A DNA stretch of 64,000 nt from Candidatus Moranbacteria bacterium RIFOXYB1_FULL_43_19 (GCA_001784875.1 MFSH01000008.1:1555-65554), one strand, 5' to 3'. Counted from the stretch's first letter, positions 6,107 through 55,726 are shown. Notes: a model not told the origin generated them from the letters alone. Numbers and translations are program-made.

Positions 6107-6136
6107 CCGCCCCGAGTCCATCGGGGCGGTTTTTTT
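6107..6136 (+). terminator. intrinsic terminator after rplY
   Basis: The hairpin CCGCCCCGA-gtcca-TCGGGGCGG is followed by TTTTTTT. Confidence 0.6.
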
Positions 6137-6315
6137 AGAGCCCCGCACCATGCCTTTTGCGTTTTGCTTCACATGCTTTTAAAATTATATCCTGCTGGAA
6201 GCGAAAATCGCCGTGGCGTATTCTGCGGTACGGGGTAAATTATGATATAATCTAGGAAAACAAGGAAGCGCGTTCGCAAGAATGCTTCATCCAAAATGAT
6301 TTGCCAAGAACCAAA

Positions 6316-13914: not shown

Positions 13915-15093
13915 ATGATTTCGAATCACTCTATCACAACTAATAAACTTCGTCAAGGATTCAAAGTGGCTCTTGTCCACGATTTTCTGAACCAACACGG
14001 CGGGGCGGAGAGGGTGCTTTTGGCGTTGCACGAGATATTTACCGAAGCGCCGATTTATACTTTGCTTTATGACCCTCAAAAAATGCGGGGGAAATTCAAG
14101 GACGCCGACGTTCGGCCGTCGTTCCTTCAAAAATTTCCGAAGTTTTTGAAAAAGCGACATAAGTGGCTTTTGCCTCTTATGCCGACTGCGCCGGAGACTT
14201 TCAACCTTCGGGATTTTGATCTGGTGATTTCTTCTTCGAGCGCTTTCGCCAAGGGAATAATAGTCAAACCAAAAACAATTCACATCTGCTACTGCCACAG
14301 CCCCATGAGATACGCCTGGGATTGGAACGAAAAATATCTCGACGAGCAGGGGCTGGGCACGAAAAGACGGATCCTGGCGCGGCTTCTTCTCAATTATGTC
14401 CGGATGTGGGACAAAGTGGCGGCGGACCGGGTGGATTTTTTCATCGCCAATTCAAAATATACCAGGGAGAGAATAAAAAAATACTATGGCTGCGAAAGTG
14501 CGGTCGTTTATCCGCCAGTGGATATTTCTTCCAAGACTAAATCTGGGAGCGATTTCCAAGACTTAGTCTTGGAAAAACGGGGTTACTTTTTGATTGTTTC
14601 CCGGCTATCGCCATACAAGAAAGTTGAAATCGCCGTGGAAGCCATGAACAAATTGAATCTTCCGCTCTTGGTAATTGGAGAAGGTTCTCCGAAATACGTG
14701 AAATACCTGAAATCAATCGCGGGGCCGAAAACGAAATTTCTGGGATTCCTACCGGATGAAATGATAAAAAAATATTTTTTCGGATGCCGAGCCTTCATTT
14801 TTCCGGGAGAAGATGATTTTGGAATCGCACCGGTTGAAGCCATGTCTTTTGGAAAGCCGGTGATTGCTTTCCGGCGGGGAGGAGCCATGGAAACGGTTGT
14901 CGAAGGAGAAACGGGAGAATTTTTTAACGAGCCAACAATTGAAGTTCTGGCCGACGCGGTGCGCCGGTTCCAGGAAAATGAAAAAAATTATGACCCGGAA
15001 AAAATCCAGCATCAGGCGCAAAAGTTTTCAAAAGAAAAATTTCGGGAGCATTTTTTGGAGGAAATTGAAAAAATAATACAAATACGCGATTGA
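13915..15093 (+). CDS. GT4-family glycosyltransferase
   Basis: The N-terminus has KVALVHDFLNQHGGAERVL and the C-terminus has the EX7E motif (FPGEDDFGIAPVEAMSFGKPVIA). It carries an in-frame CCAAGACTTAGTCTTGG repeat at 14531-14572. The ATG at 13915 is preferred over the TTG at 13858. Confidence 0.8.
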   Translation: MISNHSITTNKLRQGFKVALVHDFLNQHGGAERVLLALHEIFTEAPIYTLLYDPQKMRGKFKDADVRPSFLQKFPKFLKKRHKWLLPLMPTAPETFNLRDFDLVISSSSAFAKGIIVKPKTIHICYCHSPMRYAWDWNEKYLDEQGLGTKRRILARLLLNYVRMWDKVAADRVDFFIANSKYTRERIKKYYGCESAVVYPPVDISSKTKSGSDFQDLVLEKRGYFLIVSRLSPYKKVEIAVEAMNKLNLPLLVIGEGSPKYVKYLKSIAGPKTKFLGFLPDEMIKKYFFGCRAFIFPGEDDFGIAPVEAMSFGKPVIAFRRGGAMETVVEGETGEFFNEPTIEVLADAVRRFQENEKNYDPEKIQHQAQKFSKEKFREHFLEEIEKIIQIRD

Positions 15094-24261: not shown

Positions 24262-24408
24262 ATGGAATTTATCTATTTGCTGGAACATATAGATTAATTT
24301 ATATCTTGCCTGTTTAATCGGAAGTGGGTTGACAGAATTTCTCTTTTTTATATAATTCATACTGTTCAATATAATAAGTTTCCAGTGCTCGCGAACGAGT
24401 GCTTTTAA

Positions 24409-24527
24409 ATTCACCCCGCACCAATCCTAACAACGCGCGTCAATTATTCACGACAGAGAGGCGAAGCCGCTTCACTCTCTAGCTCAGTCTAACTATGGAC
24501 CTTGGCTGGGATTGGTGCGGGGTGAAC
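24409..24527. repeat. family F-like hairpin element directly upstream of greA
   Basis: The arms TTCACCCCGCACCAATCC ... GGATTGGTGCGGGGTGAA are near-perfect and enclose about 80 nt. Confidence 0.45.
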
Positions 24528-33656: not shown

Positions 33657-35495
33657 TTAATTTACGTTTATAACATAATAATCCGTCCCATTTCCGGGCT
33701 GGGGATCGAGCTTTTGGACATAGGCTCCCGGGAAAATTGATTTTGTTTTGGCGATGATTTCGCCGTCATAATACATAAGAACTATCTTGGCCGGCGCCTT
33801 GACGGTTTTCGGGTCGAAGTCGACGGGACGGAAATAGGCAATTTCCGGAGTCGGATAATGCGTTAGAACTTTTATCGCTTCGGCCGAGACAGGCAGGCCA
33901 TCGTCCATGATCTGGCCCCCGGCATTGGCAATGACGTATTTATTCACGTTGGGCGGAAGATTATTGAGATAAAGGGCCATATTTTTGAAATTTTGGGAAA
34001 AAGCGGCGTGAATGTCAGGGGCGCTGGCCCAGTCGATGAAATATGTTTTGATGGCGGCAAATCCAGACCAGGCAATGAGAATGATCAGCGCGGCGCGGCC
34101 GAGCTGGGCGGCAGGAAGCCGGAAATTTCTGGTTTTCATATGGTCGAGAAACCGGAAAATCATTTCCACGGCAAAAGCGGCAATGAGAATAGCAGCCGGG
34201 AGGGCTCCAATGGTCCGAAGAGCGTGGGGAAGGCCTTCGTAGGTGAGAAGTCCCGGCAGAAGCATGGCCACAAGCCAGGAAAGGAGAAGGACAGAGACCA
34301 CAAATTCCTGGCTTCTTTTCCTAAACCTGATTCTCTGATAAAGCCAATAGAAGAAATGGTAAATCAAAATGATTATCCCAATCAGGAAAAATATTCCCGT
34401 CCATGACTGAAGCTCTGGCTGGGAGGGAAAATTATGCCGCCAGTTCTGGTCACCTTTCACATTGAACATTCCAAAAGTCTTGCTGGTACTTTCCCAAAGA
34501 GCCGGCAGAAGATGGCCCTGGTTAACTTTTGGCGAAAGGACAGAAACAGATTCGGATCGGGTTTCAAAATATTCGGGATGCAGCCAAAAAGTGAGAAGCA
34601 TCGGAAGGGCGACAAAAAAAGCAGCTGAAAAGAAAGCCAGAATCGGCCTCCAGTGTTCGCGGAGGAACTTTTTCTTTGAAATGAGGAAAGCGATGAAAAG
34701 GGCAACGAGAATCGCCGGGGCGATCCGGAAGGCGATGTAACCGTGGATTCCAAGGCCGAAAAACACGCCGGCCAAAATATAATCATAGACCCCGCACCAA
34801 TTTTTTATATTAAAAAAAGATCCTAATTTTTCTCCCAAACTTTTTTGTCTTCGGGAAATTGATGCGGGGCAAGCTTTTTTCTCGCGCAGGCCCTTGAAAA
34901 GAAAATAAAAGGCAAAAACAAGGACGAACGGCAGCATGTTGGCGCGAAAAGAAATGCGGTTGAAATTGATGGCCCAAAAAGAAGTGGCGTATAGAAAACC
35001 GGCGACCAGTCCGGTCCGGTAGGTGCCGAAAAGCTCGCGGGCAAGAAGCATCATCCCGGCCACTGTCAATGCGCCGAAAAAGACCGACCACATTTTGAGA
35101 GTAATGATGCTGACGCCGAAGAATTTGAATCCCAAAGCAATGAGATTCATGAAAAGTCCCTCACGCCCATAGTTATTGGGATAGAACCACTGAAATTGGC
35201 CGGTTTCGAGAGCGTTGATGGCGTCGGTCCCATTGACAGCCTCATCCGGATAAACTCCGGGAGGCAACGTCGTGATATGATATGTCCTTGCCAGAATAGC
35301 AATCGCAAAAATCGAAGCCGCGACTGTCAAATAGAAAAATCGATGTTGGAGAAAAGAGTTATCTTTCCAAACAGCAGCTATTCTGTCCTTGAGGGCAGGT
35401 TTTTTTTGCTTTTTTGTTTTACTTTTCATTTCTGTTTTAGAAGTTATTCCGATGATCATATTATACATCAAAACCCCGAGGCTTGACAATATCAT
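33657..35495 (-). CDS. GT-C glycosyltransferase, ArnT/GT83-like
   Basis: A polytopic membrane protein with a DE motif (YPDEAVNGTDAINALETG). Confidence 0.7.
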   Translation of the reverse strand: MILSSLGVLMYNMIIGITSKTEMKSKTKKQKKPALKDRIAAVWKDNSFLQHRFFYLTVAASIFAIAILARTYHITTLPPGVYPDEAVNGTDAINALETGQFQWFYPNNYGREGLFMNLIALGFKFFGVSIITLKMWSVFFGALTVAGMMLLARELFGTYRTGLVAGFLYATSFWAINFNRISFRANMLPFVLVFAFYFLFKGLREKKACPASISRRQKSLGEKLGSFFNIKNWCGVYDYILAGVFFGLGIHGYIAFRIAPAILVALFIAFLISKKKFLREHWRPILAFFSAAFFVALPMLLTFWLHPEYFETRSESVSVLSPKVNQGHLLPALWESTSKTFGMFNVKGDQNWRHNFPSQPELQSWTGIFFLIGIIILIYHFFYWLYQRIRFRKRSQEFVVSVLLLSWLVAMLLPGLLTYEGLPHALRTIGALPAAILIAAFAVEMIFRFLDHMKTRNFRLPAAQLGRAALIILIAWSGFAAIKTYFIDWASAPDIHAAFSQNFKNMALYLNNLPPNVNKYVIANAGGQIMDDGLPVSAEAIKVLTHYPTPEIAYFRPVDFDPKTVKAPAKIVLMYYDGEIIAKTKSIFPGAYVQKLDPQPGNGTDYYVINVN

Positions 35496-36435: not shown

Positions 36436-36661
36436 ATGGGTGTCCAAATTTTTAAGCTTCCGGTGCCAAACTGCGTGGATTCCACGCGGGGCAGCGCCGG
36501 GGCTTTTTTTATAGAAAAAACCTTGCCCCGTACCAATTCTGCGCAATATACACCAAACATCGCAGGCAAATTAAAATTATCTTCTAACAAGCTGCTGATA
36601 CGGCAGAAAAATTGGTGCGGGGTTATCCACACCGCCGGATGTTGTTCTCTCCAGAAAGTTT

Positions 36662-42621: not shown

Positions 42622-45156
42622 ATGGATGTATATAATTTGAACTTGATAATGTATCCCCTTGCTTTTCTTTTGGCCGCGCTAAGCTTTGGTTCGGCGTTTT
42701 TGATGATTTTCAAAAGCTTTGTTTCTTTTCGCGCTGAAATCACCCGGTCGCTTAATATGGATATTGACATTGTCAAAGTTTCGCGGTCACTCAAAGCCCA
42801 GAATCCGCAGGCGCAGCAGCAGCAGCCGAAAAATGACAAAGAGCTTATTTCCGTAACGGAACATCTTTTCGCGAGCCTCGGGAATATCAAGGAAAAAACC
42901 GGAATTTTCCATCGGCTGATCTATGGCGATGCGGTTATATCCCTTGAAATCGCCAATCCGGCGAGCGGAGATGAGATTTGTTTTTTTGTCGGGGCGCCAA
43001 AAAAATTTATCAATATAGTCGAACGCCAGATTCATAGCTTTTATCCCAAAGCAGCCATCGAAAGGGTAAAAGATTACAATATTTTCAATCCGGGAAGCTT
43101 CACGGCGGCATCGTACCTCAAGCTCAGTCAAAAAAATCATTTTCCGATCCGCACCTATCTGTCTTTGGAGTCCGATCCGCTCAACAATATCACCAATGTC
43201 CTTGGAAAATTTGATGAAAAAAAAGAAGGAGCGGCGATCCAGCTTCTGATAAAACCAGCTCGTGGCGATTGGAGGACCAAAGGGCGGGAAGTAGCTCATA
43301 AAATGCAGCAGGGGAGGCAACTTTCGGACGTGAAAAAAGACAGTTTTTTTCGAGAACTGTTTCGAGGATTCTTCAAAATAGCCGTGAAAAAAGATGACAG
43401 TCAGAAAAAAGATATTCTGAAAAGTGATAAAGATCCGGTGCAGCTGACACCTGAAGAACAGGAAATCATAAAAAAAATCGAGGGAAAGTCGAACAAGCCC
43501 GGATTTTTGGTCAACATCCGCCTCGTGGCTTCGGCCCTCACCCAGGAACGTTCCGAGCAGGTGCTGGCCGAACTTGAAAACGCTTTCATTCAATACGAAA
43601 ATCCCGGGCTGAACCGATTTCGGGTGTTGAGGGAAGACAAAATACGCAAAAAAAACATCGCTTTCGATTTCATTTTCCGGAATTTCAAAGACGACCAGGG
43701 AATGATTCTTTCCTCCGAAGAAGTGGCCAGCATATTCCATTTCCCTCTTTCTTCGACAGAAACGCCGAAAATTTCCTGGCTCAAGTCCCGCACGGCCTCT
43801 CCGCCTTCGAATATTTCCAAGGAAGGAATCAAAATTGGCTACAATGACTATCGCGGAGTGGAAACGGTCATCCGGCACAACGCTGACGATCGTCGCCGCC
43901 ATTTCTATATCATTGGTCAAACCGGAACCGGAAAATCGACCATGATCCAGGAAATAGTGAAGCAGGACATCAAAAACGGTGAGGGGGTCTGCGTGATCGA
44001 TCCGCACGGCGATCTGGTTGACCACATCATTGAATCCATTCCCAAAGAGCGGGCGGAGGACGTCATTTATTTTGACCCGGCCGATATAGAGAGGCCATTC
44101 GGGCTCAATATGCTTGAATTCGACCATGCCAAACCGGAGCAAAAGACTTTTGTTATTAATGAGATGATCAACATTTTTGACAAGCTCTATGACCTCCGCC
44201 AGACAGGTGGGCCGATGTTCGAGCAGTATATGCGCAATGCCGCTCTTCTTGTCATGGAACACTCCGAATCCGGCGCAACACTAATGGAAATTCCGCGCGT
44301 TCTCGCCGACGAAGAATTCCGTCATATGAAACTTTCCCATTGCACAAACCCGGTCGTCAAGAATTTCTGGGAAAAAGAAGCTGAAAAAGCGGGGGGCGAA
44401 GCGGCGCTGGCCAACATGGTTCCCTATATCACTTCAAAACTCACCCAGTTCATTTCGAACGACATGATGCGCCCGATCATCGCCCAGGAAAAAAGCACCA
44501 TCAATTTTCGGCGGGCAATGGATGACCGGCGGATAGTTCTTGTCAATCTTTCCAAAGGAAAAATCGGAGAAATAAACGCCAACCTTTTGGGTATGATTAT
44601 TGTCGGAAAAATTTTGATCGCGGCTCTTTCACGGGTGGACACGCACGAAGAAGGGCGCAAAGATTTCTATCTCTATATCGACGAATTCCAAAATTTCACG
44701 ACCGATTCAATCGCCCAGATTCTTTCCGAAGCCCGCAAATACCGCTTATCACTTATCATAGCCCACCAGTTCATTGCCCAGCTCAAGGAGGAAATTTCGA
44801 AGGCTGTTTTCGGAAACGTTGGTTCAATCTGCTCATTTCGCATCGGGGCCGAAGATGCCGAGTTTGTCCAGAAGCAGTTCGAGCCGGTTTTTGACGCCAA
44901 CGACCTCATGAATGTTGATAACCGGAATTGCTTCATGAAACTTTTGATCGCGAGCCAGGTGGCGCCGCCGTTCAATATGAAAACTTATCCACCGACTGTC
45001 GGCAATCCGAAGATTGCCGAAGCCATCAAAGAGCTTTCCAAGTTGAAATATGGCAGGAACCGTGATATAGTGAATGAGGAGATCATGAAAAAGGCGGCAT
45101 TTGTCGCCGCTGCTCCGACGGCCGACGCGTTTGATATGGGAGAAAAGCCTTTGTGA
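42622..45156 (+). CDS. type IV secretion coupling protein-like ATPase (VirD4/TraG/TraD family) with an N-terminal TM segment and a ~390 aa unrecognised domain
   Basis: The Walker A motif reads RHFYIIGQTGTGKST. A T4CP-type VCVIDPHGD (DPKGE-like) motif follows. The Walker B motif is FYLYIDEFQNF and the C-terminal ARKYRLSLIIAHQFIAQL block is present. Confidence 0.7.
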   Translation: MDVYNLNLIMYPLAFLLAALSFGSAFLMIFKSFVSFRAEITRSLNMDIDIVKVSRSLKAQNPQAQQQQPKNDKELISVTEHLFASLGNIKEKTGIFHRLIYGDAVISLEIANPASGDEICFFVGAPKKFINIVERQIHSFYPKAAIERVKDYNIFNPGSFTAASYLKLSQKNHFPIRTYLSLESDPLNNITNVLGKFDEKKEGAAIQLLIKPARGDWRTKGREVAHKMQQGRQLSDVKKDSFFRELFRGFFKIAVKKDDSQKKDILKSDKDPVQLTPEEQEIIKKIEGKSNKPGFLVNIRLVASALTQERSEQVLAELENAFIQYENPGLNRFRVLREDKIRKKNIAFDFIFRNFKDDQGMILSSEEVASIFHFPLSSTETPKISWLKSRTASPPSNISKEGIKIGYNDYRGVETVIRHNADDRRRHFYIIGQTGTGKSTMIQEIVKQDIKNGEGVCVIDPHGDLVDHIIESIPKERAEDVIYFDPADIERPFGLNMLEFDHAKPEQKTFVINEMINIFDKLYDLRQTGGPMFEQYMRNAALLVMEHSESGATLMEIPRVLADEEFRHMKLSHCTNPVVKNFWEKEAEKAGGEAALANMVPYITSKLTQFISNDMMRPIIAQEKSTINFRRAMDDRRIVLVNLSKGKIGEINANLLGMIIVGKILIAALSRVDTHEEGRKDFYLYIDEFQNFTTDSIAQILSEARKYRLSLIIAHQFIAQLKEEISKAVFGNVGSICSFRIGAEDAEFVQKQFEPVFDANDLMNVDNRNCFMKLLIASQVAPPFNMKTYPPTVGNPKIAEAIKELSKLKYGRNRDIVNEEIMKKAAFVAAAPTADAFDMGEKPL

Positions 45157-47393: not shown

Positions 47394-47539
47394 GATATCA
47401 CTATATCACTATATTATAATTTGTGGTAGTATCTATATGGACGTATCTATTTTTTACCTATATAATAATTGAACATGAAATTCCGCGGTTGAATATTTGC
47501 TGCGCAAATTCAACTGGGCAGGCAAAATTTAATCTAAGT

Positions 47540-49522
47540 ATGTCGAAGTTCAAGATAAATTCAAAATTTCACCCCGACGGTGACCAACCGAAAGCAATTA
47601 AGCAGCTGACGGCTGGTCTTAAGGATGGCATGAAATTCCAAACCCTTCTTGGTGTGACGGGGTCAGGGAAGACTTTCACGATGGCGAATGTCATCGAAAA
47701 TGAGCAAAAACCAACTCTCGTGATCGCGCCGAACAAAACGCTTGCAGCCCAGCTCGCCCAGGAATTCCGGACTTTTTTTCCAAAAAACGCGGTGGAATAT
47801 TTCGTTTCCTACTATGACTACTACCAGCCGGAAGCATATATTGCGTCCTCGGATACCTACATTGAAAAAGAATCCCAGATAAACGACGAAATTGACCGAC
47901 TGCGGCACGCGGCGACGGTAGCGGTTATGTCGCGGCATGATGTGGTCATTGTCGCGTCAGTGTCGTGTATCTATGGTCTCGGATCACCCGAATTCTATGA
48001 AGAGATTTCTCTTAGCTTCAAAGTGGGGGAGGCAATTGATCGGGAAAAACTGATTCAGGATCTCACGGAAATGCACTTCCTTCGCAGTGAATATCTGTCT
48101 CGCGGGAGGTTTCGCTCTCATGGAGATACGATTGAAGTGATGGCTCCGTCGCGGGAAATTGTCACCAGAATAGAATTGAGAGATGGGAGAGTGAGAACTA
48201 TAAGCGAATATGATTTTCTCACCGGCGAGGCGCTGGGAAAATTGGAAAAAGTTTTAGTCTATCCTGCCAAGCATTTTGTCGTTCCGGAGCCGGTGATGGA
48301 AGAAGCGCTTCATGAGATAGAAAAAGAATTGAGAGACAGGGTGAATTATTTCAAGAAGAATAATAAATTATTGGAAGCGGAAAGGATATACCGGCGGACC
48401 AAGCAGGATCTGGAAATGATGCGGGAAATCGGATATTGCAACGGAATTGAAAATTATTCCCGTTATCTCACCGGCCGCGCTCCGGGAGAAGCGCCGTATA
48501 CGCTGGTGGACTATTTCGGCAAAAATTTTCTCATGGTGATAGACGAATCGCATGTGACCGTGCCCCAGCTCAACGGAATGTATAACGGCGACCACGCCCG
48601 CAAGAAATCTTTGATCGACAACGGTTTCCGTCTCCCGAGCGCCTATGACAACCGGCCGCTTAAATTCAGCGAGTTTGAGAAAAAAATAAATCAAGTGATT
48701 TTCACTTCGGCAACTCCGGGAGGATACGAAACACGTAACTCGCAACACGTAGCACATAACACAAGTGGAATTGTGGAACAGATTATCAGGCCTACTGGGT
48801 TAGTGGATCCTGAATTAGTAATTAAGCCAGCCAAAGGACAAGTGAAGGATATAATTGAAGAAATAAAGAATGTGGTGGCGAAGAAAGAGCGGGTGCTCGT
48901 GACGACGCTCACCAAAAAAATGGCCGAAGACCTCGCGGAATTTTTGAAAGAAAACGAAATAAAATCCGAATATTTGCATTCGGGAGTGGATACGATGGAG
49001 CGAGTGAGAATTCTCGAAAATTTGAGAAGGGGAAAATTTGACGTGCTTGTGGGAGTTAATCTTTTGCGAGAAGGTTTGGATCTCCCTGAAGTTTCGCTCG
49101 TCGCAATACTCGACGCGGACAAAGAAGGCTTTTTGCGCTCCGAAACTTCGCTCGTGCAAACAATCGGACGCGCGGCGAGGAACATTTCCGGGAGAGTTAT
49201 ACTTTATGCCGACAAAGTCACCGGCTCGATGAAGCGGGCGATCAATGAAACGAACCGTCGGCGCGCCACGCAGACAAAATACAACAAAAAACATCGTATC
49301 ACGCCGACAACCATCAAGAAAAAAATCGAATCTATCGTCGATCACGAGCTGAAGCCGGAAATTCCGCGGGAATTCGTGAAACTCGAATCGCTCGAGGATA
49401 TTGCCGGATATGTGAAACAAAAAGAAGCCGAAATGAAATCCGCCGCCCGAAATATGGAATTCGAAAAAGCGGCGGTGATTCGGGACGAAATCATCCAGCT
49501 CAGGAAATTGCAGATGGGGTAA
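47540..49522 (+). CDS. uvrB: excinuclease ABC subunit B
   Basis: The N-terminus reads MSKFKINSKFHPDGDQPKAIKQL. The product carries the Walker A motif GVTGSGKT, helicase motifs and a C-terminal UVR domain. The ATG at 47540 is preferred over the track start. An in-frame ACACGTAAC-type repeat lies at 48726-48766. Confidence 0.9.
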   Translation: MSKFKINSKFHPDGDQPKAIKQLTAGLKDGMKFQTLLGVTGSGKTFTMANVIENEQKPTLVIAPNKTLAAQLAQEFRTFFPKNAVEYFVSYYDYYQPEAYIASSDTYIEKESQINDEIDRLRHAATVAVMSRHDVVIVASVSCIYGLGSPEFYEEISLSFKVGEAIDREKLIQDLTEMHFLRSEYLSRGRFRSHGDTIEVMAPSREIVTRIELRDGRVRTISEYDFLTGEALGKLEKVLVYPAKHFVVPEPVMEEALHEIEKELRDRVNYFKKNNKLLEAERIYRRTKQDLEMMREIGYCNGIENYSRYLTGRAPGEAPYTLVDYFGKNFLMVIDESHVTVPQLNGMYNGDHARKKSLIDNGFRLPSAYDNRPLKFSEFEKKINQVIFTSATPGGYETRNSQHVAHNTSGIVEQIIRPTGLVDPELVIKPAKGQVKDIIEEIKNVVAKKERVLVTTLTKKMAEDLAEFLKENEIKSEYLHSGVDTMERVRILENLRRGKFDVLVGVNLLREGLDLPEVSLVAILDADKEGFLRSETSLVQTIGRAARNISGRVILYADKVTGSMKRAINETNRRRATQTKYNKKHRITPTTIKKKIESIVDHELKPEIPREFVKLESLEDIAGYVKQKEAEMKSAARNMEFEKAAVIRDEIIQLRKLQMG

Positions 49523-49604
49523 AAAGCTATACGGCGTATTGACATATTGTTTGCTTATGCTAGCTTTAGGCAAAACAAATATCAGGGAAAAGGAGGGAAT
49601 TGGC

Positions 49605-49988
49605 ATGCCTGCAGAAGTGATAGAGTTCTTTGCATGTAAACGTGGAAAGGCGGCTGTCGGGGAATTCGAACAAAAATTAAAGGCTCTTCGCGGCAAACTC
49701 GTATTGGTCTTTTTTTATGCCATGTGGTGTGGGCCGTGCCGGAGAATGCTTCAGGAAGCAAAATACCTTCCTTATGTAATAGAAGAGGTCGACAGTCGGG
49801 TAGTTATTTGCAAAGTCGACGTCGACAAGGATAAGCTAAAAAACGCCGGGAATATTGCCATAGCCGGAGAATACAGTGTCCTTGCTATACCTACCACTGT
49901 GTTTATTAAGGACATGAGACATGTTCACGACATCACTGGTGCGGCAGAAGGCGGTGTCATTTTACACAATATCAAAAAATACCTGTAA
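49605..49988 (+). CDS. trxA: thioredoxin
   Basis: The WCGPC active site is present. GGAGGG lies 7 nt upstream of the ATG at 49605. Confidence 0.8.
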   Translation: MPAEVIEFFACKRGKAAVGEFEQKLKALRGKLVLVFFYAMWCGPCRRMLQEAKYLPYVIEEVDSRVVICKVDVDKDKLKNAGNIAIAGEYSVLAIPTTVFIKDMRHVHDITGAAEGGVILHNIKKYL

Positions 49989-50041: not shown

Positions 50042-50085
50042 ATGCAATTTGAAATTGATTTATTAACTTAATAGTATTATATTAG

Positions 50086-50196
50086 TGAAACCCCCGCACC
50101 AAATTTTTGCTGGTTTGTATATATGCCAATTTGGGGTAAGTTTTTGTATTTGCGAAATCAGAAACTTATTCTCGATGATATTTGGTACGGGGCAAG
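50086..50196. repeat. family F hairpin element (CCCCCGCACCAAATTTTTGCTGG ... TTTGGTACGGGGCAAGC)
   Basis: A paralog of the element at 9436-9594. Confidence 0.45.
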
Positions 50197-50295
50197 CCTT
50201 AAATGGGGGATTTTTGTGTTAGGGATATGAATTTAGCGCGGAGAATCCTAAAGCTAAACTTTAGGAGCGCCTAAAGTTTAGCTTTAGGGGAAAAT

Positions 50296-50377
50296 ATGGA
50301 TAAAATAATCATTCGCGGAGCTCGCGAGCACCCCGAAGTATAACGCTTCGCGTTAACTACGGGGCAAGCAATTTGAT
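50296..50377 (+). promoter_or_regulatory. uvrA leader: a 15-codon uORF (MDKIIIRGAREHPEV) mimicking the UvrA N-terminus, overlapping a conserved hairpin element (50331-50370)
   Basis: The uORF ATG at 50296 has a GGGGA SD and its stop lies at 50341-50343. Its first 12 codons are synonymous or conservative variants of the uvrA start at 50378. The hairpin CCCCGAAGTATAACGCTTCGCGTTAACTACGGGGCAAGC has a paralog at 55392-55436. Confidence 0.35.
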
Positions 50378-53254
50378 ATGAATAAGATCATTATAAAAGG
50401 TGCTAGAGAACATAATCTCAAAAACATCGACCTTGAACTTCCGCGGGGGAAGTTTATCGTGTTCACGGGAATCAGCGGGTCGGGAAAAAGTACACTCGCA
50501 TTCGACACCATTTTTGCCGAAGGGCAAAGGCGGTATCTTGAAAGTTTGTCGAGTTATGCCCGGCAGTTTTTGGGACAAATGGAAAAACCGGATGTGGATT
50601 CAATCGAAGGTTTGAGCCCTGCGATTTCGATTGACCAGAAAGCCTCATCGCACAATCCGCGCTCGACAGTCGGGACAGTGACGGAAATCCAAGACTATCT
50701 GCGGCTTCTCTATGCCAAAATCGGACGGCCGCACTGCCCGGTATGTGGAAAAGAAATTTCGAAACTTTCAATTGATGAAATTGTGGATCGGATACTAACA
50801 TTCAATGCTCCGGGAACATTGAATGTTTTAGAAATTCTTTCACCGGTAGTCCGCGAGCGGAAAGGTGATTATGCCACGCTTCTTGCGGAGATGTGGAAAA
50901 GGGGATTCGCGGAGGCCTACGTGGATGGAAAAAAAGTGGTCCTCGAAGATGAAGCGAAAAAAGGAAAAATACTCGCCAGATACAAAAAACACAGCATTGA
51001 TATTTTGATTGATACGGTTGAAATCAGCGATAAAAATATTAGCCGGATATTTGAAAGTGTTGAGTCGGCGCTCAAGTTGTCTAAGGGATTGGTGAAAGTT
51101 ATTCCCGAAACGCATAACACGAAACACGACACGCGAGGGGAAGGGATTATTTTCAACCAAAATATGGCTTGTCCGGATCATGAGGACGTGGTTTTCCCAG
51201 AACTCGAGCCGAGGCTGTTCTCTTTCAATAGTCCGCAGGGGGCTTGTCCTGACTGCGAAGGATTGGGAACGAAAAAAGAAATTGATCCGAGCCTCATCAT
51301 TCCCGACAAAACCCGAACGATTGCCGAAGGGGCGATCATGCCCTGGAGCTACAAGCCGAACAACTACCAAGGCTCGATTTTGCGGGCGGTGACGAACTAT
51401 TATCATATTCCCGACAACGTCCGTTTCCGGGATTTGAGCGAAAAACAGCAAAATATTTTATTGTATGGGGATGAGGAACCAGAGGATATTGAAGTGCGGC
51501 TGAAGACAAAAACCGGAGCAGTTTGGCGCTTTGACGTCACCTGGAACGGAATTTTGGGCTTTATGCGCGACCGCTATTTCAAGACCGAATCGGAAGCGGT
51601 GCGGCAGGACATTGAAAAATATATGTCCCAAAGTCCGTGCAGCGCCTGCAAAGGTTCACGATACAAGCCGGAAGCGCTGTTAATAACAGTTGGAAGTCGT
51701 AATATTGCCCAAGTTTCAAAAATAAGCGTAAATGAAACGCTGAAATTTTTTGAGAGTTTGAAACTGAACGAGCGGGAAAAAATAATCGCGGGAAAAATCT
51801 TGAACGAAGTGAAAAGCCGCCTGAAATTTTTGGATGATGTCGGGTTGGGCTATTTGACCCTGGCCCGTTCAGCCAATACTCTGGCAGGCGGAGAAACACA
51901 GCGAATTCGTCTTGCTTCTCAAATCGGTTCGCAACTGGTCGGAGTCCTATACATTCTCGACGAACCGTCTGTTGGTCTTCATGCACGTGACAATGCGAAG
52001 CTTCTTGATACGCTGCTTAAGTTGAGAGACATTGGCAACACAGTGATTATTATCGAACATGACGAGGAAACTATCCGGAGTGCCGATCATCTGGTTGACA
52101 TCGGGCCGGGTGCGGGAAGGCTTGGCGGGGAGATTGTGGCTGAAGGAAAAATTAAAGATATCGAAACTGCTAAGAATTCTGTCACTGGCAAATACTTACG
52201 GGGAGAACTTGAAATTTCAATCCCAAAGGGTCGCCGGCCAGTGCGAAACAAAAAATGGCTGACCGTGAAAGGAGCGACAGAGCATAATCTCAAAAACGTG
52301 ACGGTTGAATTTCCTTTGAAAACTTTGACGTGCGTGACGGGCGTTTCGGGGTCGGGAAAATCAACACTCGTCGAAGACATTCTTGGAAAAGGACTTTCAG
52401 CAAAAATCATGCGTTCGCTGGAGCGGCCAGGCCGGCACAAGGAAATTCTCGGTACGCAGTATGTGGACAAAGTGATCCATATCAACCAGTCGCCGATCGG
52501 GAGGACGCCGCGATCGAACCCGGCGACATATGTGGGATTTTTCACACTGATTCGAGAACTTTTTGCGATGACAAAAGATGCGAAGCGGCATGGTTATGGT
52601 CCGGGAAGGTTTTCTTTCAACGTGAATGGGGGGCGTTGCGACAATTGCCGCGGGGAAGGATTTTTGAAAGTTGAAATGCAGTTTATGCCGGATGTATTTT
52701 TGCCGTGTGATGTCTGTCGCGGAAAAAGATACAACCGGGAAACGCTCGAAGTGAAATATAAAGGAAAAAATATCGCCGATATTCTCGCGATGACGGTTTC
52801 GGAAGGAAAAGTTTTTTTTGAAAATTATCCACGGATATATGCGCCGCTCAAAGTCCTCGAGGAGGTCGGGCTGGGATACATCAATCTTGGCCAGGCGGCG
52901 ACAACGCTCTCGGGCGGGGAAGCGCAGAGAATCAAACTGGCCTCGGAACTTTCGCGGCGGATGACCGGAAATACATTATACATTCTTGATGAGCCGACAA
53001 CAGGACTGCATTTCGACGACGTGAAAAAATTATTGAACGTTCTCCATCGCTTGGTGGAGGCGGGAAATACTGTTATTGTGGTTGAGCACAATATGGATGT
53101 TATCAAAACGGCCGATTGGATCATTGACCTTGGACCGGAAGGCGGGGACAATGGCGGACGCGTGGTGGTCACCGGCCCGCCGGAAGAAGTGGTGAAGTAT
53201 CATCAAGAAAGTTATACCGCAAAATTTCTTCGCGACGTAATTCGTAAATCGTAA
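50378..53254 (+). CDS. uvrA: excinuclease ABC subunit A
   Basis: Two ABC ATPase modules (GISGSGKSTL, GVSGSGKSTL), zinc fingers and LSGGE signatures are present. An in-frame ACACG repeat lies at 51107-51137. The last codons lie inside a family D repeat. Confidence 0.92.
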   Translation: MNKIIIKGAREHNLKNIDLELPRGKFIVFTGISGSGKSTLAFDTIFAEGQRRYLESLSSYARQFLGQMEKPDVDSIEGLSPAISIDQKASSHNPRSTVGTVTEIQDYLRLLYAKIGRPHCPVCGKEISKLSIDEIVDRILTFNAPGTLNVLEILSPVVRERKGDYATLLAEMWKRGFAEAYVDGKKVVLEDEAKKGKILARYKKHSIDILIDTVEISDKNISRIFESVESALKLSKGLVKVIPETHNTKHDTRGEGIIFNQNMACPDHEDVVFPELEPRLFSFNSPQGACPDCEGLGTKKEIDPSLIIPDKTRTIAEGAIMPWSYKPNNYQGSILRAVTNYYHIPDNVRFRDLSEKQQNILLYGDEEPEDIEVRLKTKTGAVWRFDVTWNGILGFMRDRYFKTESEAVRQDIEKYMSQSPCSACKGSRYKPEALLITVGSRNIAQVSKISVNETLKFFESLKLNEREKIIAGKILNEVKSRLKFLDDVGLGYLTLARSANTLAGGETQRIRLASQIGSQLVGVLYILDEPSVGLHARDNAKLLDTLLKLRDIGNTVIIIEHDEETIRSADHLVDIGPGAGRLGGEIVAEGKIKDIETAKNSVTGKYLRGELEISIPKGRRPVRNKKWLTVKGATEHNLKNVTVEFPLKTLTCVTGVSGSGKSTLVEDILGKGLSAKIMRSLERPGRHKEILGTQYVDKVIHINQSPIGRTPRSNPATYVGFFTLIRELFAMTKDAKRHGYGPGRFSFNVNGGRCDNCRGEGFLKVEMQFMPDVFLPCDVCRGKRYNRETLEVKYKGKNIADILAMTVSEGKVFFENYPRIYAPLKVLEEVGLGYINLGQAATTLSGGEAQRIKLASELSRRMTGNTLYILDEPTTGLHFDDVKKLLNVLHRLVEAGNTVIVVEHNMDVIKTADWIIDLGPEGGDNGGRVVVTGPPEEVVKYHQESYTAKFLRDVIRKS

Positions 53255-53325
53255 TTTGTAATTGGGATAATTTTCACTACAACTAGTTGTAGTGAGTTTT
53301 ACTACTATATATAGTAGTAAAATAA
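53231..53325. repeat. family D 3'-end element (GACGTAATTCGTAAATCGTAATTTGTAATTGGG plus two perfect hairpins)
   Basis: It supplies ...DVIRKS-stop to uvrA. The hairpins CACTACAACTAGTTGTAGTG and TTTACTACTATATATAGTAGTAAA follow. Confidence 0.5.
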
Positions 53326-53401
53326 TTTTACAAAAGAAAAAGGACCAGTTTTCTAGGCTGGCCCTCAGCACCTCAGATTATTAATATCAGGAGAATTTAA
53401 G

Positions 53402-53644
53402 TTAAGATCTCGTGATAACACGGACTCGCTGGTCCATGGTGTTCTGCATGTCCGTACTGGTTCCCACAGAAATGATTTTTTCCGCGCAGGCCTGATTCTC
53501 AAGGTAATTCAAGAACTCAGACAAGACGAGATCATCCGTGGCGCCAGTGAAAGCTCGATCCAGTGCGCGCCTTCCATCTTGAGTAACCAGGGCTTCGTAC
53601 TCGCTGCCTTTGAATTTAATCCGTACCTCGTAAACCATTATCAT
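53402..53644 (-). CDS. hypothetical small protein (80 aa)
   Basis: A strong SD (AAGGAGG) precedes the ATG at 53644. Confidence 0.45.
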   Translation of the reverse strand: MIMVYEVRIKFKGSEYEALVTQDGRRALDRAFTGATDDLVLSEFLNYLENQACAEKIISVGTSTDMQNTMDQRVRVITRS

Positions 53645-53655
53645 GGCCGGCCTCC

Positions 53656-53976
53656 TTAGCTGATTGGCTCGATCGGGGTCACTGGCGTCGATTGGTGAAG
53701 TTCGTAATAATTGTCGCCAGGTCCTAAGATTGGGATGATATCCCGCCCCGGATTTTCCATCGGTCGCACGACGACAAATTTTACGCCGCCGTTATTTGGC
53801 CAGCCCAGTTCGAAGAGTCGCCAGGGTTCCATTTCGCCGAGAGGGATTAAGGGTAATTTTTTATACATCTCTCCCAGAGGAGGGGGAACGTCCAGACGCT
53901 TGCCTATAAGATACAAACCTGACAACACCAGTGCAACGAAGCACAAAGCGATTCCAATGATATCCACTTTTTCCAT
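53656..53976 (-). CDS. hypothetical small membrane-anchored protein
   Basis: An N-terminal TM segment (IIGIALCFVALVLSGLYLI) and an AAGGAGG SD just upstream of the start region. Confidence 0.45.
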   Translation of the reverse strand: MEKVDIIGIALCFVALVLSGLYLIGKRLDVPPPLGEMYKKLPLIPLGEMEPWRLFELGWPNNGGVKFVVVRPMENPGRDIIPILGPGDNYYELHQSTPVTPIEPIS

Positions 53977-54043
53977 TCCTCCTTGGAGTTAAAGATCTTG
54001 TTGCTTTTTGGTTTTCGTATAAACATATAGCATTAAGATTTGT

Positions 54044-55342
54044 ATGTCAATGCAAACCATAAAATCTAAAATCTCCAATCTCCCCAAATCTCCCGGTGTA
54101 TACGAATTTCGCGATAAGCAAGGGAAAATTCTTTATATTGGGAAAGCAACGAGTCTTAAGAGCAGGGTGGGGAGCTATTTCGGAAATTTTTCCAAGACTA
54201 AGTCTTGGAAAACCACAAAACTTAGTCTTGAGAGAGGGCCACGGATTGTTGAAATGGTCTCGCGAGCTACAGAAGTAAAAATCCATGAAACCGATTCGGT
54301 TCTCGAAGCCTTGATTTTGGAATCGAATCTCATCAAAAAGTACCAGCCGAAATATAATGTGATGGCGAAAGATGACAAGAGTTTTGGCTATTTTGTGATC
54401 ACCAAAGAAAAATTTCCGCGAGTGGTGATTTTCTGGAAAACGGAGCTGGGGAAAGTGCCGGCAAAAAAAATATACGGGCCGTATCTATCAAAATATCAAA
54501 TGAATATTGCTCTGAAACTGATTCGCCGAATTTTTCCGTTTCATTCCAACAAGCAGCAAACCGAAAAAGGGTGCCTTGATTTCCAAATCGGCCGGTGTCC
54601 CGGACCGTACGTGGGAGCTATTACGAAAAAAGATTATCTCAAAAATATCCGCAATATCGAGATGATACTCCGAGGCGAAAAAAAGCGGCTCGTCAGCTCG
54701 CTTAAAAAAGAAATGAAAAATTGCGCGAAGAACCACGAATTCGAAAAGGCCGCCGAAGCCCGCAACCGAATTTTCGCGCTCGAACATATCAGGGATGTTG
54801 CATTGATAAACCAAGACTTAGTCTTGGAAAATTCCAAGACTAAGTCTTGGGGAAGGATCGAGGCCTATGATATTTCCAATATCGGCGGTGATTATGCGGT
54901 TGGTTCGATGGTCGTTTTCACGAACAGCAAAGCGGATAAAAACGAATATCGTAAATTCAAAATCAAAACAGTCATTGGTGTTGACGATGTTGGTATGATG
55001 AAAGAAGTTTTAGCTCGGCGTTTTAGGAATAATTGGCCGAAACCGGACCTGATTCTCCTCGACGGGGGGAAGGGCCATCTCAATATGGCCCAGAAAATAA
55101 TGGAGGAATTGAAACTCGAAATCCCGATCATTGCTGCTGCCAAAGGGCCGACACGAAAAAAAATCGATATCTACCAGTCAAAATACCTCTTGACATATCT
55201 TGGTCGAAATGAGGAAATAAGGGAGAGGTATAACAGTATATTGAGTGATGCGAAGCTAATCGAGAGAATTCGCAACGAAGCCCATCGCTTTGCGATCAGT
55301 TATCACAAGAAATTACGACAGAAAAATTGGAAAAGTAGATAA
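54044..55342 (+). CDS. uvrC: excinuclease ABC subunit C, short form lacking the C-terminal (HhH)2 domain
   Basis: The GIY-YIG module (GVYEF...ILYIGKA), a UVR domain (EFEKAAEARNRIFALEHI) and an RNase-H-like endonuclease domain are present. Two in-frame CCAAGACTAAGTCTTGG insertions lie at 54192-54232 and 54811-54851. Confidence 0.8.
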   Translation: MSMQTIKSKISNLPKSPGVYEFRDKQGKILYIGKATSLKSRVGSYFGNFSKTKSWKTTKLSLERGPRIVEMVSRATEVKIHETDSVLEALILESNLIKKYQPKYNVMAKDDKSFGYFVITKEKFPRVVIFWKTELGKVPAKKIYGPYLSKYQMNIALKLIRRIFPFHSNKQQTEKGCLDFQIGRCPGPYVGAITKKDYLKNIRNIEMILRGEKKRLVSSLKKEMKNCAKNHEFEKAAEARNRIFALEHIRDVALINQDLVLENSKTKSWGRIEAYDISNIGGDYAVGSMVVFTNSKADKNEYRKFKIKTVIGVDDVGMMKEVLARRFRNNWPKPDLILLDGGKGHLNMAQKIMEELKLEIPIIAAAKGPTRKKIDIYQSKYLLTYLGRNEEIRERYNSILSDAKLIERIRNEAHRFAISYHKKLRQKNWKSR

Positions 55343-55391
55343 GCATATCTAGTACAGTAATACAGTATACTATACCGAATGTCCTTGTCGT

Positions 55392-55436
55392 CCCCCGAAG
55401 TATAAATGCTTCGCATTTAACTACGGGGCAGGCAAT
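55392..55436 (+). repeat. conserved hairpin element (paralog of 50331-50370) immediately upstream of the tRNA locus
   Basis: CCCCGAAGTATAAATGCTTCGCATTTAACTACGGGGCAGGC differs from the uvrA copy by compensatory AACGC/GCGTT to AATGC/GCATT changes. It is flanked by a duplicated TGTCCTTGT. Confidence 0.4.
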
Positions 55437-55442
55437 GGATAT

Positions 55443-55464
55443 GTCCTTGTAGCTCAACTGGATA
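55443..55464 (+). other. tRNA-like 5' fragment (acceptor strand plus D-arm start: GTCCTTG-TA-GCTC-AACTGGATA)
   Basis: It matches a canonical tRNA 5' end up to the D-loop. The cloverleaf then breaks off into a GC-rich hairpin. Confidence 0.3.
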
Positions 55465-55534
55465 CCTGCCCGCTTCGAGTCGCGAAGCGAGTCGGGCGGG
55501 GAGTGTTGGTTTCCGGCCGCCTGCTTGCGCTTTT

Positions 55535-55606
55535 GCCCTTGTCGTTCAATGGATAGGACGCAAGTTTCCGGAACTTGAAATATAGGTTCGATTCCTATCA
55601 AGGGCG
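55535..55606 (+). tRNA. tRNA-Arg (anticodon CCG)
   Basis: A clean cloverleaf. The acceptor stem GCCCTTG pairs with CAAGGGC. The D-arm reads TCGTTCAATGGATAGGACG. The anticodon stem-loop reads CAAGT-TTCCGGA-ACTTG. The T-arm carries GGTTCGATTCC. There is a discriminator G and no encoded CCA. Confidence 0.85.
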
Positions 55607-55636
55607 CAAAAAAAAACGGGCAGGGAACCAAAGATC

Positions 55637-55661
55637 GCAGGTTCGAGTCCTGCCAAGGACG
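55637..55661 (+). other. tRNA-like 3' fragment (T-arm GCAGG-TTCGAGT-CCTGC plus acceptor strand CAAGGAC and discriminator G)
   Basis: A perfect T-arm consensus. Its acceptor strand is the exact complement of the 5' fragment at 55443-55449. Confidence 0.3.
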
Positions 55662-55726
55662 CAATTTTTAGGTTCGATTTTTACCCGCCAAAGTGAGAGT
55701 GTCGGCGTGCCTGTCGAGGGCACAGA

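Follow-up and report, generated by a model that had tools for sequence, protein, structure and literature searches.

Rickettsia palindromic elements (RPEs) are short hairpin-forming repeats of ~100 to 150 nt that carry no coding gene, have spread through reduced genomes, and occupy intergenic sites, RNA genes, and in-frame positions within proteins. Repetitive extragenic palindromic (REP) sequences and REPINs, which go with RAYT enzymes of the Y1 HUH type, and the hairpin miniature inverted-repeat transposable elements (MITEs) of the IS200/IS605 group insert strand specifically and leave no target-site duplication. Integrative elements such as phage 21 and e14 (icd), SXT (prfC), and tRNA islands leave the end of their target twice, once as a displaced dead piece and once as a live copy, with differences of a synonymous kind between the two. 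Here, we describe a 64-kb window (the whole stretch of DNA analyzed) from a Candidatus Moranbacteria genome (Patescibacteria, or candidate phyla radiation), in which a displaced start of uvrA is split by a hairpin element that we name E1. E1 behaves like RPE or REP-type palindromic elements, and the duplicated gene end beside it recalls the icd and prfC elements; the defining features of each are missing. A literature search for such elements in Patescibacteria found no description of E1. In our assessment, with a confidence only somewhat above even, the structure at uvrA is best explained by insertion of E1 and repair with foreign homologous DNA, not by a regulatory leader.

Like RPEs, E1 is found in frame within reading frames (hisH and a long ELP3-like ORF), but it is shorter (36 to 42 nt), is nearly identical across class-level lineages, and is systematically tied to displaced gene-end fragments beside rebuilt genes, which to our knowledge have not been described for RPEs. 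E1 shares with REP/REPIN and IS200/IS605 hairpin elements an imperfect, bulged single hairpin, the absence of target-site duplication, and strand-specific insertion, together with a GTAG-like motif beside the stem on the minus strand and a C(GNA)G triloop. However, REPs are species specific, highly abundant, and intergenic, whereas E1 is low copy (2 in 64 kb), spans the phylum, and lies inside genes; unlike these families, it has no conserved target tetranucleotide. No RAYT or TnpA was identified; a Y1/HUH domain is absent from the ORFs (open reading frames) flanking uvrA, the rest of the window not having been scanned. Integron attC sites resemble E1 in having a conserved basal stem, interrupted by an internal mismatch and an extrahelical base, and an apical part that varies in length and sequence but stays paired. 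In contrast to attC sites, E1 lacks R''/R' boxes (RYYYAAC/GTTRRRY), carrying instead GTATAAN ... TTAACTAC, whose purine/pyrimidine pattern does not fit, and it does not occur in arrays, with cassette ORFs, or near an integrase. Terminal inverted repeats would suit a MITE of a DDE transposon, but target-site duplications are missing in the insertion contexts examined. At E1 loci the two copies of the target end abut, unlike those of the icd and prfC elements, and a 38-nt hairpin lies inside the dead copy, with no element body, recombinase, or shared core. Finally, homology-facilitated illegitimate recombination during natural transformation, which combines one homologous anchor with one nonhomologous foreign joint, has the logic of the rescue proposed below. 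Its documented joints use 3 to 10 nt of microhomology at arbitrary positions, whereas at E1 loci the donor joint always falls at the boundary of the coding sequence (CDS) and the recipient side always 5 to 24 nt 3′ of the hairpin.

Old and live starts of uvrA

The mini-ORF upstream of uvrA opens with ATG at 50296, closes with TAA at 50341 to 50343, and spans 15 codons (product MDKIIIRGAREHPEV*), with GGGGA placed 5 to 6 nt upstream of its ATG. The initial annotation had described this ORF (50296 to 50343) as mimicking the uvrA start, with its stop inside a hairpin and uvrA itself starting at 50378. All three points hold: the stop lies within E1 copy 1 (50331 to 50368, plus strand; CCCCGAAGTATAACGCTTCGCGTTAACTACGGGGCAAG), the live gene starts where stated, and the two starts share 23 of 36 bases and 10 of 12 residues. 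The differences between them are, as had been said, mostly synonymous or conservative, with only D/N and R/K changed at the protein level; their number, however, is 13, so the earlier figure of about 10 was a slight undercount. The mini-ORF represents codons 1 to 14 of uvrA, its original 5′ end, and stands behind the native promoter, leader, and Shine-Dalgarno sequence. Part a of this old start (50296 to 50330, plus strand; MDKIIIRGAREH) is a displaced pseudogene piece covering codons 1 to nearly 12 and opens the mini-ORF. E1 splits the old start after codon 12, and part b (50369 to 50377, plus strand; C AAT TTG AT) continues with His-Asn-Leu and ends the old fragment. After these nine bases, the complete uvrA follows from its ATG (50378 to 53254, plus strand), encoding 958 amino acids with the full domain set and the N terminus MNKIIIKGAREH. 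This UvrA matches a protein of RIFOXYB1_FULL_43_19 at 100% identity. A translational bypass of the T4 gene 60 type, from CAC to CAT, was considered and rejected, since the stop stands apart, 82 nt would have to be crossed, and a complete start is already present in the new copy.

Upstream of the old start, a promoter-like site (TTGAAA-17-TAGTAT, overlapped by TTGATT-17-TATATT; 50049 to 50083, plus strand) falls in a conserved block that relatives share upstream of their uvrA. Next comes a conserved leader between the inverted-repeat arms CCCCCGCACCAAAT ... ATTTGGTACGGGGCAAGCC (50091 to 50198, plus strand), orthologous in L004, L151, and L154. Since this leader is native upstream DNA, the old uvrA start has kept its original surroundings. 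A lineage-specific long palindrome, in which CCTAAAGCTAAACTTTAGG is repeated twice (50247 to 50288), lies between the leader and the old Shine-Dalgarno sequence; at the corresponding position, other lineages carry another palindrome or lack one.

We compared uvrA in 7 lineages, of which 3 (the window, L113, and L151) have the split layout. The remaining four (L003, L004, L152/153, and L154) have neither E1 nor a duplication at uvrA, and their single start lines up with the window's old fragment, right behind the same promoter-like block and leader. The peptide of the old fragment is identical to the N terminus of most close UvrA homologues. The closest UvrA relative (P0002) has 92% identity and the same MNK start. 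In the three lineages with the layout, E1 occupies a shared site, GARCA|C. The L113 element is identical to that of the window (38 of 38 nt), and the L113 old fragment has a 1-nt deletion that brings a stop at codon 4; in L151, the element is diverged but still paired, and part b is longer (AATCTAAAAAT).

The old start of the window is identical to that of L152 at 32 of 36 bases and to the live start of L113 at 29 of 36, and its live start matches both the L151 old start and L154 at 30 of 36. Within any one genome, old and live starts agree at only 22 to 24 of 36. Each copy is thus closer to alleles of other genomes (30 to 32 of 36) than to its neighbor (23 of 36), in line with the initial statement that this is not a decayed target-site duplication. 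By these comparisons, the two uvrA starts are different natural alleles, not an in situ duplication, and the swapping of alleles between genomes points to recurrent, independent events with foreign DNA. The first 36 nt of the live gene belong to a different allele class, and the live starts of both the window and L113 read GAACATAAT in place of GAGCA|CAAT, so that the E1 target is removed. The first 16 codons of the live gene are not extra diverged compared to the rest (~75% among all pairs). A diversity-generating retroelement was rejected as the source of the differences, which are not adenine specific.

Palindromes and strain mixtures can confuse short-read assemblers, and strain variants might have been joined at a palindrome during metagenome assembly. 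We give this explanation a negligible chance. Three independent assemblies of the species, made with different pipelines, all show the identical structure, an analogous rpmE case stands on an 804-kb single-contig chromosome (L034), and the layout is common to dozens of unrelated loci. A 174-bp length difference between two of the assemblies consists of runs of N at scaffolding gaps (L002, 2769 to 2809 and 9259 to 9297) and reflects no real indel.

The E1 hairpin and its distribution

Boundaries of E1 were set from cases in which its removal gives back a known sequence. A covariance model (R1) finds two copies only in the window, at 50331 to 50368 (38 nt) and at 55393 to 55432 (40 nt, plus strand). 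The hairpin and second copy of the initial annotation are real, but the extents given there (50331 to 50370 and 55392 to 55436) are revised by the model. E1 reads 5′-CCCCGAAGTATAA, a stem-loop of 7 to 13 nt, TTAACTACGGGG, and a 4-nt tail (CAGG, CAAG, or TAAA). Its ends are terminal inverted repeats (CCCCG...CGGGG) that, with inner pairs, make the whole element one hairpin with a 4-nt 3′ tail. Both window copies fold at ~−12 kcal/mol as DNA on either strand (z of ~−4.2 to −5.3), and 0 matches to the full 41-nt pattern are expected by chance. A dif/Xer site was rejected, its core motifs not fitting E1.

The E1 base is invariant, and the apical stem covaries strongly, with 52 distinct versions and 84% Watson-Crick pairing compared to 27% after shuffling. 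Covariation, as had been expected of a model built from the hairpin copies, scores 0.20 to 0.21 against 0.06 in controls (alignments of 59 and 125 copies), and in divergent members compensatory changes extend to the basal pairs. The paired changes reported earlier between the two window copies comprise one compensatory C-G to T-A change, beside which the apical stem has one extra A-T pair. The E1 hairpin is a real structure under selection. Its loop, T-N-C closed by C-G, is compatible in some copies with a UNCG-like RNA loop and also, read on the other strand as G-N-A, with the very stable DNA triloop C(GNA)G. Mismatches of the G-T and A-C types, which bear on whether RNA or DNA is the selected form, number 9 and 4, a difference that is not decisive; the presence of the C(GNA)G triloop in the minus strand hints at a form made of single-stranded DNA.

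A search with an exact pattern of 22 bases, variable at its center, gave 19 matches in species-representative genomes, all of them Patescibacteria and spanning many classes (Saccharibacteria, Moranbacteria, Paceibacteria, Doudnabacteria, and others). The same pattern was found on at least 114 metagenome contigs. This amounts to more than 130 copies, every named host being a patescibacterium, and the covariance model returned 125 matches at 99 loci. Copies are dispersed, with 1 or 2 per locus. A looser pattern gave 13 matches in viral contigs, but these represent two unrelated phage sequences without the outer stem and were dismissed as chance. Judging from this distribution and from the insertion contexts, E1 is a mobile hairpin family across Patescibacteria. 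In about a dozen contexts examined, removal of E1 restores a contiguous gene or tRNA with no target-site duplication. Insertion sites include tRNA loops, gene ends, and sequences such as AGCW|CAAT, and 36-nt copies stand in frame (PKYNLRLTTGxA) within an intact hisH (L106) and a long ELP3-like ORF (L079), in the latter 71 codons in and possibly upstream of the true start. No mid-gene copy disrupting a gene was found; traces lie only within ~80 nt of a CDS end. The left and right flanks show no common tetranucleotide, only subfamily-specific contexts, and the subfamilies defined by tail (CAGG, CAAG, and TAAA) have distinct, strand-specific targets. Orientation agreed with GC skew at only 39 of 62 loci (P of ~0.06), which argues that the polarity of E1 is intrinsic to the element and not set by replication.

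Separately, a conserved AT-rich sequence, AAAGAAAAACTTGAAATTGTCAAAGAACGCGGCGAG, carries E1 at four different positions in different genomes (L046 to L048, L068, L073, L084, L086, L092, L099, L112, L130, and others), always in one orientation; this sequence has no Rfam match.

Split gene ends, nested tRNAs, and their possible origin

About 40% of E1 copies share one layout, which runs along the plus strand of the element as part a, E1, part b, and a complete gene copy. Part a is a terminal piece, 11 to 81 nt from the gene end, and part b adds 5 to 24 nt of the old gene. Among protein genes, 5′-end cases comprise uvrA (3 lineages), rpmE (3), an smpB-like gene, cca, ileS, and others, and at the 3′-end cases (glmS [2] and an HtpX-like gene) E1 is antisense. 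The complete copy lies 3′ of the E1 plus strand in ~40 of 40 cases. In all protein-gene cases, the new copy begins within 0 to 2 nt of the start or stop codon. The CDS boundary is the limit of sequence homology between lineages. Old and new copies differ by 20 to 36%, mostly at synonymous sites, and no remainder of the old gene was found downstream of the rebuilt rpmE and smpB-like genes. Terminal duplications are rare, amounting to a handful among ~4,300 ORF termini in 870 kb of Patescibacteria DNA, and none of those at protein genes in this set lacks an intervening hairpin (E1 superfamily or GC rich). Flanking duplication thus recurs, as does covariation, at other copies of the hairpin. The initial annotation had offered a mobile element that copies target 5′ ends: the same hairpin is indeed tied to the duplicated ends of many genes, but E1 does not copy its target, the new copy being a divergent allele. 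Nor did a link to SOS or repair genes emerge; the hosts include rpmE, the smpB-like gene, cca, ileS, glmS, hisH, and many tRNAs.

A duplicated gene end with synonymous-type divergence is, from icd and prfC, an established hallmark of integration, and the hosts of E1 include classic targets of integration (tRNA genes and glmS). The locus could therefore be the scar of a site-specific element that brought a replacement gene end and later lost its body, E1 being the hairpin of its attachment (att) site. We consider this very unlikely. No element body is present: in more than 9 protein families, the old fragment and the new start are only 0 to 2 nt apart. E1 is located within the old fragment and not between the copies, the junctions share no core sequence, and no integrase gene lies beside any inspected E1 copy. 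Identical, precise loss of a body at dozens of loci would also be implausible.

tRNA genes also show the layout. Of 109 E1 copies, none sits in a tRNA that becomes whole on removal of E1; ~26 have a full tRNA 14 to 60 nt to the right, on either strand, and none has one to the left closer than 44 nt. The second window copy belongs to a nested tRNA-Arg locus (55380 to 55663), in which all parts are on the plus strand. The duplicated start noted beside this copy was confirmed: TGTCCTTGT stands to either side of it, and each occurrence is a 5′ fragment of a tRNA-Arg gene. Fragment A consists of part a (55381 to 55392; GTCCTTGTCGTC), E1 copy 2 (55393 to 55432), and part b (55433 to 55441; CAATGGATA), a D-loop continuation when compared with the live tRNA (GTCGTTCAATGGATA). 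A second dead tRNA-Arg, B, follows. Its 5′ part (55443 to 55516) is split into 55443 to 55464 and 55501 to 55516 by a different, GC-rich hairpin (55465 to 55500), its anticodon loop holds an insert (55517 to 55624) that carries the live tRNA-Arg(CCG) at 55535 to 55607, and its 3′ part (55625 to 55661; GAACCAAAGATCGCAGGTTCGAGTCCTGCCAAGGACG) supplies an acceptor arm that pairs with GTCCTTG of the 5′ fragments. With the GC-rich hairpin and the insert removed, tRNA B is complete, and it resembles the single plain tRNA-Arg that L003 has at this place. Nested tRNAs of the same identity, with the live tRNA inside a loop of the dead one, also occur in L036, L066, L024, L048 (three levels), and L054. 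The nested live tRNAs have a conserved leader and trailer that are mutually inverted repeats (CCCCGCACYAAWTTT/AAAWTTRGTGCGGGG), and dead halves carry further hairpin insertions, some of them two different hairpins (L048 and L066).

The GC-rich hairpin at 55465 to 55500 belongs to a second family, also seen in L088, L031, and L143 (CCTGCC(C/T)G...CGGGCRGG, with the core CGCTTCG/CGAAGCG or a simple CCTGCCTGCCGGCAGGCAGG form). This family inserts at the same D-loop position of tRNAs as E1 (GGATA| and GGTTA|).

The layout bears directly on the proposal, made from the window alone, that the mini-ORF and hairpin act as a leader-peptide or attenuator-like device controlling translation or transcription of uvrA. 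In favor of such a device, a good Shine-Dalgarno sequence precedes the mini-ORF, whereas none is found within 5 to 10 nt of the live ATG. The mini-ORF stop falls in the 5′ arm of the hairpin, so that translation of the mini-ORF would release the GGGG in the 3′ arm. In L119, the last bases of the upstream ORF, ATGA, overlap the start of the new rpmE. Nevertheless, the mini-ORF had been expected to be conserved in relatives, and it is absent from 4 of 7 uvrA lineages and frameshifted in L113. The stop position differs from locus to locus, and the same structure occurs at tRNAs and antisense at 3′ ends, where no peptide is possible. Rfam 15 at gathering score matched only tRNAs in the window and nothing at E1 there or at 20 further loci, and no gene caller annotates the mini-ORF. 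At uvrA, E1 is a single hairpin with no T-run and no alternative terminator and antiterminator structures. Because the E1 layout recurs at many genes and tRNAs, the alleles are swapped, and the mini-ORF can be frameshifted, a functional leader is not supported, and we regard it as extremely unlikely. The mini-ORF is probably still translated, and its translation may incidentally affect initiation at uvrA, as a by-product and not as a conserved device.

Under the favored reading of insertion and repair, E1 would have inserted into uvrA and inactivated the gene, or an E1-associated cleavage would have broken it a few bases 3′ of the hairpin. Either event would leave ~36 nt of homology on the terminal side, too little for clean allelic replacement by DNA of a related lineage. 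Repair would then be one sided: a homologous crossover of the ordinary kind within the gene body would serve on one side, and on the other the hairpin-protected stub (a-E1-b) would be joined nonhomologously to a donor strand trimmed back to where homology stops, at the CDS boundary. The outcome would be a fossil start beside a rebuilt gene with a mutated target site. This model accounts for scars only near gene ends, a new copy at the CDS boundary, foreign alleles, and a short part b. The absence of disruptive mid-gene copies is likewise expected if mid-gene hits are repaired cleanly through two-sided homology.

Several findings weigh against insertion and repair. We identified no enzyme for moving or cleaving E1, and the joint b|ATG shows no consistent microhomology. 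We know of no documented bacterial pathway that makes this joint, nor of a description in bacteria of a reaction joining a hairpin-protected stub to a homology-trimmed donor strand. The strict polarity (~40 of 40) goes beyond what homology-limited repair alone would give and needs an assumed strand-specific, E1-directed cleavage. Identity along the gene does not decide which uvrA start is resident. In L048, dead 5′ halves of tRNAs lack E1, the new tRNA having been inserted whole with both old halves kept, so that E1 is not required for replacement at tRNAs. The window and L113 share an identical E1, yet their old fragments differ by ~25% (27 of 36 identical in part a), which fits later or repeated insertion of E1 as well as strong constraint.

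The last two points would also follow if a partial terminal duplication came first, through unrelated foreign recombination, and E1 entered the dead fragment later as the sole nonlethal target. The dead tRNA halves with two different hairpins fit this order of events too, and the in-frame copies in hisH and the ELP3-like ORF indicate that E1 inserts on its own. E1 prefers certain sequences or structures (for example, tRNA D- and T-loops and AGCW|CAAT), and its subfamily-specific, strand-specific targets could produce an apparent polarity at tRNAs. On the other hand, 0 hairpin-free terminal pseudofragments of protein genes occur among the ORF termini surveyed, the uvrA lineages without E1 also lack the duplication, and the origin of an exactly CDS-bounded duplication is left unexplained. 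The sense orientation of E1 in all ~10 protein 5′-end families would be improbable under independent insertion. We judge this alternative unlikely, though it is the main rival.

Returning to insertion followed by repair, a wider cycle of hit and replacement can be proposed tentatively, as a possibility that we do not hold to be probable. Tiny hairpins would strike conserved sites in essential genes and tRNAs, and a polar, homology-bounded patch from another lineage would rebuild the end. Such a cycle would make these elements drivers of allele turnover at gene termini, visible as nested tRNAs and swapped uvrA starts. The finding explains a group of puzzling upstream ORFs, fragments of tRNAs, and short pseudo-starts in the genomes of Patescibacteria, and it advises caution before these are read as regulatory leaders. 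If the insertion-and-repair reading is true, these cells routinely repair essential genes with the DNA of diverged relatives, and an undescribed joining reaction and a hairpin-recognizing enzyme would be implied. As a compact, phylum-wide element that can be searched for with model R1, E1 offers a marker of DNA exchange among very small uncultured bacteria.

Neighboring genes and repeats

In the window, uvrA is preceded by uvrB (47423 to 49522) and a thioredoxin gene (49539 to 49988), the latter followed by a 390-nt spacer up to uvrA, and is followed by a short form of uvrC (54044 to 55342). The ~790 bp between uvrA and uvrC (53255 to 54043) hold two small minus-strand ORFs of 80 and 106 amino acids with no Pfam match; this gap is 4 nt in L003 and L004 and contains one ORF of 112 to 117 amino acids in L152 and L154. 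Directly after the uvrA stop stand the palindromes CACTACAACTAGTTGTAGTG and TTTTACTACTATATATAGTAGTAAAA. Five kilobases upstream of uvrB, positions 42622 to 45156 encode an 844-amino-acid VirB4/TrwB-like type IV secretion ATPase (DUF87 and T4SS-DNA_transf), which could matter should DNA exchange or a relaxase-type nickase play a part.

An inverted repeat, CCCCGCACCAAT ... ATTGGTGCGGGG, occurs as five pairs in the window (6136 to 6241, 24406 to 24527, 34785 to 34875, 36520 to 36627, and 50091 to 50198), each with 60 to 100 nt of unrelated sequence inside and a −10-like motif before it. At least three pairs are intergenic, the pair at 34785 to 34875 overlaps a listed minus-strand ORF, and the pair upstream of uvrA is found at the same place in L004, L151, and L154. 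These pairs may form a stem shared by 5′ leaders, or they may be what is left of tRNA-type units. A palindrome family, TTTCCAAGACTWAGTCTTGGAAAA, is present at 14553 to 14576, 54189 to 54237, and 54808 to 54856. Within uvrC, the copies keep the reading frame and contribute SKTKSW-type segments missing from the L003 UvrC. In L004 and L113, related CCAAGG...CCTTGG palindromes are found shortly before uvrA.

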